DNA of 64,000 nt from a virus (taxonomy: Duplodnaviria; Caudoviricetes): positions 1-64,000 of IMG/VR virus record IMGVR_UViG_3300028591_000085, one strand, 5' to 3'. The position numbers and the translations under genes were made by a program. The notes below the pieces were generated by a model. The model saw only the letters and a list, made by a program, of their open reading frames with translations, searched no databases and had not been told where the DNA came from. This document shows positions 42,607 through 48,307 of this stretch, piece after piece (positions within the stretch are counted from its first letter, which is position 1; each line of letters starts with the position of its first letter).

Positions 42607-42687
42607 TTGTCAATAATATCATTACCAACTTACGCATTCCGATTGATGGAAAGTAAGACGTAAGGTTTCGTGTAATGATTGAGACAA
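42607..42687 (+). ncRNA. Structured 5' leader RNA, copy 1 (unclassified)
   Basis: Nested stems ttgtc/gacaa, atcattac/gtaatgat, cttacg/cgtaag, ttcc/ggaa; covaries with copy 2. Confidence 0.75.
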
Positions 42688-43075: not shown

Positions 43076-43410
43076 CCACATGAAAGGAGGTGATTAACAT
43101 GTGGAATTAATTAGCACCCATCCCCAAAGGGTGAACGTGGTTTCTATACTGACACGTAAAAAAGTATAGCGTTGATAGTTTCGTAAAACTATAGATATCC
43201 GTCATACTTTGTATGGTCCAGAGCTCGCTAGTGGGAGTAACTGGTGAAAAGGAAGAAAGAAGTAATACTATGCGAGTTAGTATTATGAGCGCTCACTAGA
43301 AATGCCGAACATCTTGGGGTGGAAGATACGTATAAGAATCAGAAATGTACGGCGCATTTCTGTTACATAACTAAAAATAAGTTGAAGTTCTCGCATCAAC
43401 TTATTTTTTT
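43076..43410 (+). ncRNA. Highly structured ~335-nt non-coding RNA (unclassified), ending in a terminator
   Basis: About eight hairpins plus five loop-mediated pairings; no long ORF. Confidence 0.7.
43373..43410 (+). terminator. Intrinsic terminator
   Basis: aaaaataagttga / tcaacttattttttt. Confidence 0.85.
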
Positions 43411-43494: not shown

Positions 43495-43570
43495 TACCAA
43501 TAGAACTATACCAACTTATGCATTCCTAATAGAGGATATTAGTCATAAGGTGTCGAGTATAGTTATGGTA
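43495..43570 (+). ncRNA. Structured 5' leader RNA, copy 2 (unclassified)
   Basis: tacca/tggta, aactatac/gtatagtt, cttatg/cataag, tcct/agga. Confidence 0.75.
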
Positions 43571-43594: not shown

Positions 43595-43903
43595 ATGACT
43601 GATAAGAACATATTCGAAATAGCCTCAAACGATGCTGAGGCTAACCAACTCATGGAGAAGGTTTTTTATGCATCAAAAACCTTCAACGACACTCTGTTCT
43701 CGATCAAATATTTGATCGAGAACAGATACAATAATAAAGCTCCTGGATCAATGATTGAGCTGCTCTATCAGCTCAAAGGTATGGCAGAAAAGTTAATAGT
43801 ATCTGCCGAAATCATTTCCGACTTCGGTCATATGCTGGCCGAAGTCAAGGCTTTGAGCGAAAATGATTCAGTCGAAGCTGAGGAAGCTAAGACTGAGGGC
43901 TAA
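43595..43903 (+). CDS. Early hypothetical protein (helical, acidic)
   Basis: 102 aa, RBS AAGGAGG, GC above background. Confidence 0.8.
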   Translation: MTDKNIFEIASNDAEANQLMEKVFYASKTFNDTLFSIKYLIENRYNNKAPGSMIELLYQLKGMAEKLIVSAEIISDFGHMLAEVKALSENDSVEAEEAKTEG

Positions 43904-43909
43904 AAGATA

Positions 43910-43955
43910 AGGACTCCCCGAACAATCTGGTGTTCGTTCGGGGAGTCTTTTTTTT
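43910..43955 (+). terminator. Intrinsic terminator
   Basis: gactccccgaac / gttcggggagtc followed by a T-run. Confidence 0.9.
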
Positions 43956-46900
43956 TAATCTTTTTTGTCATAAATTTCTTTTAAGCTTCTTTTTAATTCT
44001 ATAATGCATTTATTACCAAGTGCTGTTAACAATATACTCGGTGTCATACGTTTTAAAATACTATTAGAAGCTATTATTGTACTAACTTCTTCTTCGGGTC
44101 TATAACTACTCCAGGGTTCATATCCTGCAGGAATTATTTCACCAATGGTATTCTTAAGAGCAGTAAAATTGGCTATCTTGGAGCCAACTTCTAGAGGTTC
44201 AGAGTGTTTTACATAGAACTCTATAAGTACTCCACCCTCTTCAATTTTTTCTCCTTTAATAACACCAAATTTATTGGGTTCAATTTTTTTACTTGTTTCA
44301 TTAACAAGTAAACCACATTTAACTATACTACCAGCTGAGTCCGGATCATACTTTTCTAAGAACTTTTTCTTAGAATTTATAGTACTATAATAATTACTTA
44401 CAATCTTTCTTAATGAAGGTGAAAGCTCATCAAGTTCAACTGTAGAATATATCTTAATTTCTTCAATTACTCCTGAATATTTGGAATGAATGTCATTCCT
44501 ACTCCCTTCAAGAATAGTAGATTGTTCCTCTTGACTAAGATTTGCAAGTAAAGTATTCAATGAATTATCTTCAAATGAAGTATCAAATTGAATCAAGCTG
44601 TCTCCTACTTTTATTTCTTGACCTTTTTTAACCATATATTCAACGTTAGCATTTTTACCAATTACAACACTCTTTAAGAAACACATCTCTGTTGCAGCTT
44701 CATCTGATAATTTTTCAGTTATCATTGTAGCATCTTGATAAGTGTTATAAGTAGACATGATTGCAACTTTAGTAAGTGTTCCCATGTTCATTCTGCAATT
44801 ATTAAACTTATCATTGGTAAAGAAGTCTTTATGATAAGCTAATACAGAATCTTTCTTAAACTTATCTCCAACTTTTAATGTAGTAATTAATTGGTTACTC
44901 AAGAAGAAACCACCGCCACCATTTTTAACAATAGTATGACCTAGGTTAACAGCTTGACATTTCCCAGAGTTATATTTAACTATCATTATATCATCTTTAT
45001 AATCTACTACAATACCATCTTCAGCAGCATTGACAGCAAAGTCTGATGATAATTGGAAACGACAAACTTCTTCCATACCATTAGATATTAATACAGGGGA
45101 TGATTTCTTTACAGGAATAGTATGTTTAGATTGTTTTAATGCGTGTCCAAGACGAGTAGGGTCATCATTAGTAGCACCTAAAGGTATAGTTAATTCAGCA
45201 GGTGAGAATACATCTACATCGTGTAACGTATCCAATTTTTCATTTTTTGAATCAACGTAATTTAAATCAACATATCCACGTAACGACGTTATTGAAGGAT
45301 TAAACGTAAGAGTCTTGCTTACACCACAAGAACCGTCAGGAGATGTTGACGGTGATATAACACCTATCGAGGTCTTATCAAAAGTTCTTTTAGGAACTGT
45401 ATAAGATTCATCAAGGTTAGCACCTCTAAATCCTTTACTAGAAATACCACGGAACATTTCCATTTCAAGTGTTGGATTAAGTGTGGAATAATCTTCAACA
45501 GTTTTTAATGCAATAAGTTCTTTTATTACACAATCCTGAGGTACTGAATATGCTTTTTTACCGTTACTATTTCTATATAAAATATATTTCTTAGCAAGAC
45601 GCTCATAAAGAATAGCAGGTATTATTTCATTACATCTAATTCTTGATAGTCCCTGATTTATTTCAGGAGTATATTGAGAATCAGATAATAATGATACAGC
45701 GTATATGATTATCTCTATTAAGTCATAAGGAATATTAATATCTTTACATACTTCCACAGTTATGGGGTCCATCATAAATTCATACACGTTAAGTAATGCA
45801 TTTGCAATTGCAGCTTTACCCCAAACTTTTATTAAATATGGCATATATGGTTCTTTAGTATCCATTTCAGAGATTTTATAATTCTGAGTATCTAAGAATC
45901 TGTATCCATTTATTAATAAATCAATACCAACTGTAGATTCGTATACAAGATAGCAATCTGCAAATCTTAAATAGCTTTCATTAGGTTTAAGCTCAGGAAA
46001 CTTATCGTCAAGTCTATATTTAACTTTTCCTTTTTTAAGTAATGATGATAAACCTTCCCAAAATCCCAATAATAAACCAACAGCAACATACTGTTCAAGA
46101 ACTTTTGCTCTGGTATACATAAGTCTCTTAGGAGCTCTAGTAGATTCATATACATGTTTTTCTTCATCAGATAAAGCATTTAACATAATATAAACTATGG
46201 TATCATTATTATCAGTTTTTTGAGTTTCCTCATTTATATAAATAGGAGAACCGCTTTTATCTAAACCAATAAAGATATATCCTTTCTTCATGGGTATATC
46301 TCTTTTTTTAGCAAATTCTATTGCTTCATTCTGGTTAAATAAAATTTCAGTCTTTCCTTTTTTAAACTTTATCGCAATCTTAGAAAGTTCATCATACTCT
46401 ACTGTAGTAATAAACTTATTGTTTATTGAGATACAGTTTCCATATGTAAAGTATTTCTTTATTTCATCTGACTTTTTCAATACAGTTTTAAGTCTTTCTA
46501 TAGATGATAAAGATTTAGTTCCAACTCGTTCAATAAACATCTTATTGTAGTTAGTTGTTAACTGAACTATATTTGAACTAGTCTTCACAACTGGATATAA
46601 TAAGTTTTGTTTTTTGATAACTTTTCTATTGCCACCTATATAAATAAATTTATCTTCTATAAATTTAGGTATATCAACCTTAATTGTATGACGTTTTCTA
46701 TTAGTATCTTCAAGATAAATAGTATATGTATCTTTATAATTTAACTCATCAGACGAATCTTGAATTTTTATATCTCTAACAAACATGGGAAGAGACTTAT
46801 TATTTAATGAAAGAATTGCATCAGTTATATCTTTCGGCATTAATTTTTCATTATATTCCTTATCAAAATTATCAAATTTCAGTTGCGTCACATTTTTATT

Positions 46901-48307
46901 ACTTGTTCTAACAGATGCCGATACATCGTGAGTAGGTATTTGGATATGAGAAGCTTGAATTTTCTCAATTTCTTTGATTGTCATTCCTTTTATTTTAAGA
47001 TCAGCTTGCGCTTTCCTAAGTTCTTCATCTCTTGCTGTTGATGCAGTCTTCTTAGGAACAACGGGTGAAATCACTTCATCATAAATTGTATTTAATAATT
47101 CTTTATCAGAATCTATGTCATTTTCCAATTTAGTCTGTACTGCTGTTTTTATATTATCGGATGTTAAACTCTTAGTATATGCATCCGGAGCAATCTTCTC
47201 AACTTCATTTCTTATCGCAACAGCTTTTGCTCTAATTGCATTATAAACTTTATCACTACCAGTTATAACTTTTCTATCACCAAGAGTAGATTTTGAAACA
47301 GTGGGTCTTTCAACCTTATTTGACGATGGTTTATATGTTGCTTTAGATTCATCTTGTTTAACTTCATCTAAAGATGTTATAATAGTATTATTTTTAGTAT
47401 TATTAATACTATTATTCAATTCACCAATAGTATTTTCAACAGCTTCATCCTTCTTAATCTGCTCTTCATTAACTGCGTCATTAAAGAATGATACATTTGA
47501 ATATAGTCTATTCATTTCTCTACGGAAAATTGTATATGTTTTCTTATCACAATTATATGGATTGAACTTTAAGCTCTTTTTATCAGTAAACATATAGAAA
47601 TCAATATTTAATGCTGTAATCATATCAGGATATTTAAGTAATGTATAGTATAGCATAAAGACAGGATTTGTCATATTCTCTTTCAAATTTTTATACATAG
47701 GATAATTTGAAACATCAATTAAAACAAATCTATTTTGATATGCTGTCAGATTAGGAGCAAATAATATACTTCTTAAATAATCCCAGTACATTTTAATCTT
47801 TCTAACTGGTGAAATTTTTTCACACAGTGTTAAAAAGATATTCATATGCTTTGATAAATCATAGTATAGATTCCTATCATCTTTACCATCAATAGCAAGT
47901 TTTATATAAGGATGAATTTTATTTTGTGATTTTGACAATACCTTTTTATATAATTCTTTACGTAAATCAAGCTCACGTATTCTAAATGTTTTTCCATACA
48001 ATTTACCACTATACATCGGGTTATAATAGTAATAGAAATATTTATTTGCATTGACAAAGTTTATGGTATTTGTCATTAAATTAAGAGATTCATCTGTATT
48101 ATTGGTATATAAAAAACAAAGGTTTCCTCTATTCCCATTAGTACCTTTAGGTAACGTAATTTTTTTATTTATTAATTTTAAATATGGTACATTATCAGGG
48201 TAAACTGCTTCCATCATTACATCATTTTCGCTATCAATATCTGTAACAACTTCAGTCATGAGTTCTTCTTCCTGTTTACCATTTATAACATCGAAAAATA
48301 AACTCAA
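43955..48307 (-). CDS. Phage multisubunit RNA polymerase beta-like subunit (probably virion RNAP)
   Basis: SPSTSPDGSCG (cf. CPIETPEGPNIG), NDDPTRLGHALKQSKHTIP (cf. HDDANRALMGSNMQRQAVP), YNTYQDA (cf. GYNFED), GSKIANFTALKNT (cf. GDKMAGRHGNKGV), KRM (cf. SRM). Confidence 0.9.
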   Translation of the reverse strand: MSLFFDVINGKQEEELMTEVVTDIDSENDVMMEAVYPDNVPYLKLINKKITLPKGTNGNRGNLCFLYTNNTDESLNLMTNTINFVNANKYFYYYYNPMYSGKLYGKTFRIRELDLRKELYKKVLSKSQNKIHPYIKLAIDGKDDRNLYYDLSKHMNIFLTLCEKISPVRKIKMYWDYLRSILFAPNLTAYQNRFVLIDVSNYPMYKNLKENMTNPVFMLYYTLLKYPDMITALNIDFYMFTDKKSLKFNPYNCDKKTYTIFRREMNRLYSNVSFFNDAVNEEQIKKDEAVENTIGELNNSINNTKNNTIITSLDEVKQDESKATYKPSSNKVERPTVSKSTLGDRKVITGSDKVYNAIRAKAVAIRNEVEKIAPDAYTKSLTSDNIKTAVQTKLENDIDSDKELLNTIYDEVISPVVPKKTASTARDEELRKAQADLKIKGMTIKEIEKIQASHIQIPTHDVSASVRTSNKNVTQLKFDNFDKEYNEKLMPKDITDAILSLNNKSLPMFVRDIKIQDSSDELNYKDTYTIYLEDTNRKRHTIKVDIPKFIEDKFIYIGGNRKVIKKQNLLYPVVKTSSNIVQLTTNYNKMFIERVGTKSLSSIERLKTVLKKSDEIKKYFTYGNCISINNKFITTVEYDELSKIAIKFKKGKTEILFNQNEAIEFAKKRDIPMKKGYIFIGLDKSGSPIYINEETQKTDNNDTIVYIMLNALSDEEKHVYESTRAPKRLMYTRAKVLEQYVAVGLLLGFWEGLSSLLKKGKVKYRLDDKFPELKPNESYLRFADCYLVYESTVGIDLLINGYRFLDTQNYKISEMDTKEPYMPYLIKVWGKAAIANALLNVYEFMMDPITVEVCKDINIPYDLIEIIIYAVSLLSDSQYTPEINQGLSRIRCNEIIPAILYERLAKKYILYRNSNGKKAYSVPQDCVIKELIALKTVEDYSTLNPTLEMEMFRGISSKGFRGANLDESYTVPKRTFDKTSIGVISPSTSPDGSCGVSKTLTFNPSITSLRGYVDLNYVDSKNEKLDTLHDVDVFSPAELTIPLGATNDDPTRLGHALKQSKHTIPVKKSSPVLISNGMEEVCRFQLSSDFAVNAAEDGIVVDYKDDIMIVKYNSGKCQAVNLGHTIVKNGGGGFFLSNQLITTLKVGDKFKKDSVLAYHKDFFTNDKFNNCRMNMGTLTKVAIMSTYNTYQDATMITEKLSDEAATEMCFLKSVVIGKNANVEYMVKKGQEIKVGDSLIQFDTSFEDNSLNTLLANLSQEEQSTILEGSRNDIHSKYSGVIEEIKIYSTVELDELSPSLRKIVSNYYSTINSKKKFLEKYDPDSAGSIVKCGLLVNETSKKIEPNKFGVIKGEKIEEGGVLIEFYVKHSEPLEVGSKIANFTALKNTIGEIIPAGYEPWSSYRPEEEVSTIIASNSILKRMTPSILLTALGNKCIIELKRSLKEIYDKKD

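Follow-up and report, generated by a model that had tools for sequence, protein, structure and literature searches.

In a linear virus record of 203 kb (IMG/VR record IMGVR_UViG_3300028591_000085), the first 64,000 nucleotides, which we call the window, very probably encode a conserved structured RNA just downstream of crn4, a gene for a predicted ring nuclease. As drawn from the sequence, the plus strand folds into eight hairpins joined by five loop pairings, and compensatory changes between two clades of homologues argue for this fold. We give a probability of about one in two to the reading that the element is a stand-alone, long-lived noncoding RNA (ncRNA) of ~335 nt (43076-43410), which would be matured from an early crn4 transcript and might serve in counter-defence. 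Its predicted parts are the following (PK, pseudoknot or other loop pairing; ORF, open reading frame).

43076-43110, plus strand: 7-bp hairpin whose loop holds a strong Shine-Dalgarno (SD) sequence (43082-94), and after it a mini-ORF at 43099-43110 (Met-Trp-Asn-stop)
43115-43133, plus strand: hairpin H1, whose loop (43122-27) pairs with 43314-19 (PK1)
43136-43169, plus strand: hairpin H2 (43136-56) and the H-type pseudoknot PK2 (43144-50/43163-69), with a U-rich loop 1 and an A-rich loop 3
43175-43216, plus strand: hairpins H3 (43175-92) and H4 (43202-16)
43218-43244, plus strand: hairpin H5, whose invariant loop (43228-33) pairs with 43294-99 (PK3; in full 43228-34/43293-99)
43245-43262, plus strand: purine-rich single-stranded linker, largely conserved
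43263-43285, plus strand: hairpin H6, whose loop (43271-76) forms a kissing interaction with that of the terminator (43390-95; PK5)
43286-43327, plus strand: most conserved segment, with a 10-nt palindrome (43286-95), the PK3 partner, the PK4 strand (43303-07) and the PK1 partner
43340-43362, plus strand: hairpin H8, whose loop (43350-54) pairs with 43303-07 (PK4)
43373-43410, plus strand: intrinsic-terminator-like 13-bp hairpin (43373-408) and its U tail, where the RNA is predicted to end; the hairpin loop is the PK5 partner

The two clades of homologues are ~77% identical over aligned positions. Clade 1 comprises the window together with L008/L009/L130, L010, L132, L140, L167-170, L172, L175 and L176, and clade 2, which carries insertions, comprises L015, L138, L148, L149, L151 and L152. 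The prediction of helices used only the window, and their register on L015 was set by hand; in this register 21 of the 55 stem pairs, spread over nine stem segments, have changed on both sides between the clades, with none broken. Covariation, which an earlier sequence-only reading of the stretch had suggested as a check on its fold, is present. Without the hand-set H6, H8, terminator and PK2, 11 of 49 pairs changed on both sides and one was broken, as against 1.4 and 17 in a simulation without structure, and a structure-blind MAFFT alignment gave 13 double-changed pairs out of 67, as against 0-2 when the partners were slid. Compensatory changes occur in H1 (three of five pairs), H3 and H4 (one each), the outer stem of H5 (three of four), H6 (four of eight) and the terminator hairpin (two in 11 pairs). 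In L138, L148 and L152, seven of the eight H8 stem pairs have been replaced around an unchanged loop, and the H2 stem is invariant between clades.

The loop pairings taken alone show six compensatory pairs out of 28, where 0.9 would be expected (P 0.0003), and these fall in three of the five: PK1 (two of five pairs), PK2 (two or three changes depending on the register, with one mismatch in the 7-bp register) and PK5 (one of five), a pairing that clade 2 preserves across distances of 122, 135 and 357 nt. PK3 and PK4 are conserved without such changes, PK3 being invariant except for one G-C to G-U change in L008, and PK4 except for one mismatch in L015. Since the one-sided changes give G-U pairs on the plus strand, this is fixed as the strand of the RNA. 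Identity between the clades amounts to 60% in stems and ~79% at pseudoknot and unpaired positions, which is the usual pattern of a structured RNA.

Much of this architecture had been drawn by the sequence-only reading. The stems lie at its coordinates or within 1 nt of them (43115-33, 43136-56, 43175-92, 43202-16, 43218-44, 43263-85, 43340-62 and the terminator), and four of its loop pairings stand as proposed (43144-50/43163-69, 43228-34/43293-99, 43303-07/43350-54 and 43271-76/43390-95). The pairing that it saw for the H1 loop exists as well, but in a better register of six Watson-Crick pairs (43122-27/43314-19), the one originally given needing a bulge. A hairpin that it had placed at 43311-27 is lost from the model: at -2.3 kcal/mol it is weak, clade 2 does not preserve it, and it competes for the strand that pairs with the H1 loop. 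There is a further 4-bp junction helix (43198-201/43320-23) in both clades, which varies only through G-U, and the loops of H3 and H4 are left with no pairing partner. The terminator hairpin (-12.0 kcal/mol) has too few G-C pairs to be listed by the terminator scan. Segment 43286-43327 is near-invariant in both clades, and its 10-nt palindrome does not exceed chance (P 0.30 in shuffles). Two changes specific to L015, in the H8 loop and in the segment before the PK1 partner, cost PK4 one pair and create a perfect 5-bp match overlapping the PK1 partner, which reflects either chance or an alternative fold.

Statistics on single sequences are less uniform. The plus strand of the window copy folds at -82.4 kcal/mol, with a z of -3.25 against shuffles, and the clade-2 copy reaches -5.88. 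To the claim that most loops have a complementary partner, a control in which the hairpins were fixed and the unpaired letters shuffled gave a divided answer: under a strict rule (Watson-Crick partners of at least 6 bp) five loops are paired where 0.5 would be expected, a number reached in 0 of 1200 shuffles, whereas once the rule is relaxed (5 bp, one G-U allowed), six loops against 4.3 expected are not significant (P 0.13). The case for the predicted structure is one of comparative evidence rather than of single-sequence statistics.

All homologues lie directly 3′ of crn4 and on the same strand, including those that were found without using that gene, namely L015 and L167 (through a core gene) and L130, L132 and L138 (the three true matches of a DNA pattern in metagenomes). 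The RNA is 98-99% identical in the five clade 1 relatives measured, a figure that we do not take as proof of constraint because the intergenic DNA beside it is equally conserved within the clade. An SD and a 71-codon ORF lie between H8 and the terminator in L138, L148 and L149, and despite this intervening gene the match between the terminator loop and the H6 loop persists over 357 nt. In L015 and L152 the SD after H8 is retained with no ORF. There is no ORF common to both clades within the RNA, and the unit, which begins at the SD and ends at the terminator, can accommodate a gene within its final linker.

The genome holds no second copy of the RNA, and no third clade was found with DNA patterns in viral contigs and GTDB genomes or with blastn in cultured phages, 14 pattern matches in the viral contigs being chance matches and not further homologues. 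A covariance model found no copy in 93 virus records, among them ~22 related jumbo phages (core gene 44-70% identical), so that this narrow group of phages is the only known source of the RNA.

Regarding its identity, no family of Rfam 15 reached the gathering threshold in the window or over the RNA in L015, L138, L148 and L167, and at E values up to 10 both clades gave only weak, unrelated matches far below threshold. The families covered include ROOL, GOLLD, OLE, raiA, tmRNA, RNase P, the signal recognition particle RNA, group I and II introns, T-box and riboswitches; ARAGORN found no tmRNA either, in agreement with the earlier remark that hallmarks of tmRNA, RNase P, signal recognition particle RNA and introns were lacking. 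Words resembling T-box and hammerhead motifs are not kept in clade 2 and have no Rfam support. The earlier label of an unclassified compact ncRNA fits the covariation, the lack of an Rfam match and the position after crn4 in every homologue. No paper was found with the conserved words of the RNA; the supplement of a viral structured-RNA screen (PMC10690425) lay outside that search, and a prior listing there is possible.

Two more specific suggestions of the sequence-only reading are not supported. The RNAs of type III toxin-antitoxin systems, such as ToxI and CptI, contain H-type pseudoknots and occur as tandem repeats before a toxin gene; they share with the present RNA an H-type pseudoknot with A-rich and U-rich loops, but this one is single copy, with no internal or tandem repeats and no neighbouring toxin gene, which speaks against an antitoxin mimic. 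RNA anti-CRISPRs (the solitary repeats known as Racr, and rAcrVIA1) are short and mimic crRNA. Like them, our element would be an ncRNA in a phage accessory island beside a probable protein anti-CRISPR; unlike them, it is a large pseudoknotted fold. The weak likeness of its 5′ part to a type I-C repeat finds no counterpart among the CRISPR repeat families of Rfam at E values up to 10, the host's own repeats lying outside this comparison; the H1 stem sequence changes between the clades, and the bases of the would-be repeat 3′ handle are those of the invariant H2 stem.

The surroundings of the RNA are defined by three further features.

42625-42673, plus strand: structured ~45-nt 5′ leader before crn4, one of ~10 copies of a motif dispersed through the genome
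42713-43066, plus strand: crn4, a Crn4b-type ring nuclease of 117 aa that keeps the NLTPH motif and the conserved Arg
43955-48307: RNA polymerase beta subunit gene, 1450 aa, whose closest cultured matches are jumbo phages

The 117-aa protein matches the Crn4b structure PDB 9r7b (E 7e-16) and retains the active-site Thr, His and Arg, of which His and Arg are invariant across 48 relatives. These three residues have been tied to binding and catalysis in Crn4, and phage copies have been proposed as anti-CRISPRs, a proposal that was not tested in that work (PMC12830947). Judging from its sequence, the gene probably disarms CRISPR alarm signals, with cleavage of cyclic oligoadenylate as its predicted activity. 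Its GC content is 55%, within a genome of 31% GC, and its allele varies within clade 1 (55-86% amino acid identity) while the RNA stays 98-99% identical. Degenerate Crn4-like paralogues occur near the island in L167 (2000-2293, minus strand), where Tyr replaces the catalytic His, and in L140 (3-839), L132 (3-602) and L138 (9704-10150). Together with the allele swaps, these paralogues suggest a diversifying ring-nuclease hotspot. At 80 other viral crn4 loci (L047-L126) no copy of the RNA was found. Ordinary genes or terminators come after the other crn4 genes.

On the plus strand, a sequence scan found no promoter-like or terminator-like site between crn4 and the RNA, from which we infer that the two are co-transcribed, as had been supposed earlier. 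The ~45-nt leader also precedes crn4 in L008, L132, L140, L167, L015, L148 and L152, and probably lies close to where the RNA-bearing transcript begins. Its copies lie at 42625-42673 and 43511-43560 of the window, and in the genome near 66517 (plus), 85758, 91827, 136220, 141482 and 152488 (all minus), and 159163 and 174458 (plus), mostly before accessory genes; the motif has covarying stems and no Rfam match. A second leader motif (genome 83707-83766 and 127039-127100, minus strand), directly before an SD, is an H-type pseudoknot whose loops are U-rich and A-rich, with a loop 2 of 2 nt, and resembles H2-PK2 in its geometry. In L015, one and the same 12-nt word stands in the purine-rich linker after H5 and in the 5′ leader at that locus (P 0.005); the common word is of 9 nt in L148 and L152 (P ~0.06), and there is none in clade 1.

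The sequence-only reading had overlooked the 5′ end of the RNA, where a strong SD is followed by a start codon and, within 2-3 codons, a stop in all 11 homologues checked, the peptide itself not being conserved. We take the SD at 43082-94 to be a 13-nt match to the 3′ end of Bacillota 16S rRNA, and the genome contains its full 11-nt core at only three places. Other strong SD sites before short ORFs are found at genome positions 160224 (plus strand; 40 codons, in a highly structured region) and 98198 (minus strand; 13 codons). In clade 2, the SD and mini-ORF are followed by a perfect 17-bp hairpin, with compensatory changes between L015 and L148. A ribosome bound at a strong SD, even with no start codon, blocks RNase J1 and stabilises the downstream RNA in Bacillus subtilis (PMC5737220). 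The present RNA shares with the Bacillus 5′ stabilisers of the STAB-SD and hbs type a strong SD near the predicted 5′ end, able to retain a ribosome as an obstacle to RNase J1 (PMC5737220), and differs in that the SD would protect an ncRNA and comes with an ORF of 2-3 codons. Because the SD and mini-ORF are kept with no conserved peptide, and an SD-bound ribosome can block this nuclease, we propose that they mark a stable 5′ end.

The reading that we prefer would then be as follows. Transcription would proceed with crn4 from a promoter before the leader and end at the terminator; the crn4 part would be cut and degraded, and a ribosome on the SD and mini-ORF would block the 5′-to-3′ RNase J1 and set a stable 5′ end. 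The kiss between H6 and the terminator, with the other pseudoknots, would close the chain into a compact nuclease-resistant body, either monomer or oligomer, and the RNA would accumulate early in infection and act in trans, serving as decoy or sink, with a ribonucleoprotein of the host's defences, an RNase or a nucleotide signal as its target. On its separate parts, we lean towards a discrete, stand-alone RNA species, as its sequence features suggest. A counter-defence role beside Crn4 is a tentative proposal, though the most likely single role, because the RNA would belong to an early accessory island and share its transcript with a ring nuclease. More doubtful is the boldest version, where a ribosome-capped, terminator-locked RNA with several pseudoknots would soak up a cyclic-nucleotide signal, or a component of type III CRISPR or of a cyclic-oligonucleotide-based antiphage signalling system (CBASS), in partnership with the co-transcribed ring nuclease, and would represent a new class of phage counter-defence RNA.

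Several points weigh against this reading. The covariation comes from one deep split between two lineages and is below R-scape grade, PK3 and PK4 having no compensatory change and PK5 only one. The transcript itself is a prediction, RNase J1 is assumed from Bacillota-like signals, and no binding partner is indicated. Moreover, since most crn4 genes (all 80 of those loci) have no such RNA, Crn4 does not depend on it, and the link between the two may be the shared ancestry of one locus.

The strongest competing explanation, in our view an unlikely one, is that there is no separate RNA and that the fold and locked terminator act in cis as a 3′ armour of the crn4 mRNA, preserving the message or recycling ribosomes while host RNases are active. 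It would account for a position always 3′ of crn4 on the same strand, kept through allele swaps, and the genome does put other structured leaders on accessory genes. However, a 300-nt fold with five pseudoknots far exceeds what 3′ protection needs, the internal SD and mini-ORF are better explained as a new 5′ end, and conserved complementarity with the crn4 leader is limited to 6-7 nt.

Somewhat less probable is an RNA-only oligomer or cage of the ROOL/GOLLD kind, with a role unrelated to Crn4 and some of the loop pairings being intermolecular. ROOL, which has also been found in the rumen, provides a precedent, as a covarying pairing predicted to be tertiary proved to be intermolecular (PMC12286853). 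With ROOL and GOLLD, and also with OLE, raiA and ARRPOF, the present RNA shares its nature as a phage ncRNA with several pseudoknots or kissing loops, a variable linker, here able to hold a whole ORF, and no assigned function, and it contains an invariant self-complementary stretch. Nevertheless, ROOL and GOLLD measure 580-800 nt, so that our ~300-nt RNA has half the size of ROOL, it has no Rfam similarity, and the palindrome is within chance. Neither is there a tRNA island, frequent near ROOL and GOLLD: ARAGORN found no tRNA or tmRNA gene in the whole 203-kb contig, and the neighbours are crn4 and core phage genes. Also unlike those families, the RNA is tied to a ring-nuclease gene and has a 5′ SD with a mini-ORF and a kiss with its terminator loop.

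It is improbable that the element is a riboswitch-like leader for a downstream gene, in the form of the 71-aa ORF present after H8 in L138, L148 and L149 and lost elsewhere. The SD retained with no ORF in L015 and L152 does look like the remnant of an ORF loss, yet clade 1 keeps the whole fold with neither that SD nor the ORF; the SD after H8 is unpaired in the model, and the terminator lies after the ORF and cannot gate it.

Still more remote is a ribozyme, for instance a domain derived from pistol in H2-PK2-H3 that would cut the RNA off the crn4 message. In clade 1, the order of P1, loop pseudoknot, G-C-G and P3 resembles that of the pistol env25, and the 5′ domain shares with pistol (RF02679) the succession of hairpin, loop pseudoknot and following stem. 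Pistols are common near phage genes of Firmicutes, and their conserved residues are purine 32, G40 and G42 (PMC6154101). Against this, RF02679 gives no match at E values up to 10, no P2 strand exists between the A-rich linker and the pseudoknot strand, the purine-32/G33 junction is missing, and the equivalent of G40-C41-G42 after PK2 is present in clade 1 only.

Least credible of all is a DNA-level element (an origin, a packaging site or a recombination site promoting crn4 exchange) or a set of chance AT-rich hairpins, for even though the exchange of crn4 alleles reaches to the very edge of the element and there is one copy per genome, the strand-specific, G-U-tolerant changes, the long-range loop pairings, the terminator and the SD point to RNA.

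The contig is a PBS1/AR9-like jumbo phage. Its beta subunit has as best cultured matches, at ~30-35% identity, Goe21, LPJP1, SA1, PBS1 and AR9, jumbo phages of Bacillus, Listeria and Staphylococcus, which makes a Bacillota host likely; record names suggest that its relatives come from rumen samples. A plus-strand island between a 186-aa core gene (minus strand) and the 1450-aa beta-subunit gene contains, in this order, the structured leader, crn4, the RNA, a second leader and a 102-aa gene. The gene after the RNA terminator has no family match and differs among clade 1 homologues, and therefore the 102-aa gene is not part of the RNA unit; a perfect 34-bp palindrome lies inside it (window 43693-43726). 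In related phages, the RNA polymerase gene contains group I introns (L024, 1667-1975 and 2978-3282; L040, 1916-2267), with similar interruptions in L028 and L034. In a more distant phage group (L039, L042-L045), a conserved ~340-bp stretch with no long ORF lies ~1.66-2.0 kb upstream of the 186-aa core gene; it is not homologous to the RNA by the covariance model, and could be another ncRNA, a small gene or a recoded gene.

Taken together, the comparative evidence describes an ornate RNA that is real and apparently not yet catalogued, its covariation being good but drawn from two lineages, and its fold extends the small set of such RNAs known from phages. In contrast to ROOL and GOLLD, the RNA always sits beside a neighbour of known biochemical activity, which opens the way to a direct functional test, and with ~300 nt and five loop pairings it is a practical target for chemical probing by selective 2′-hydroxyl acylation analysed by primer extension (SHAPE) and for cryo-electron microscopy. 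If its ends are made as proposed, the phage would use a parked ribosome and a terminator-loop kiss to obtain a nuclease-proof RNA, and if this RNA does bind a defence signal or complex, it would be the RNA counterpart of protein sponges and ring nucleases.
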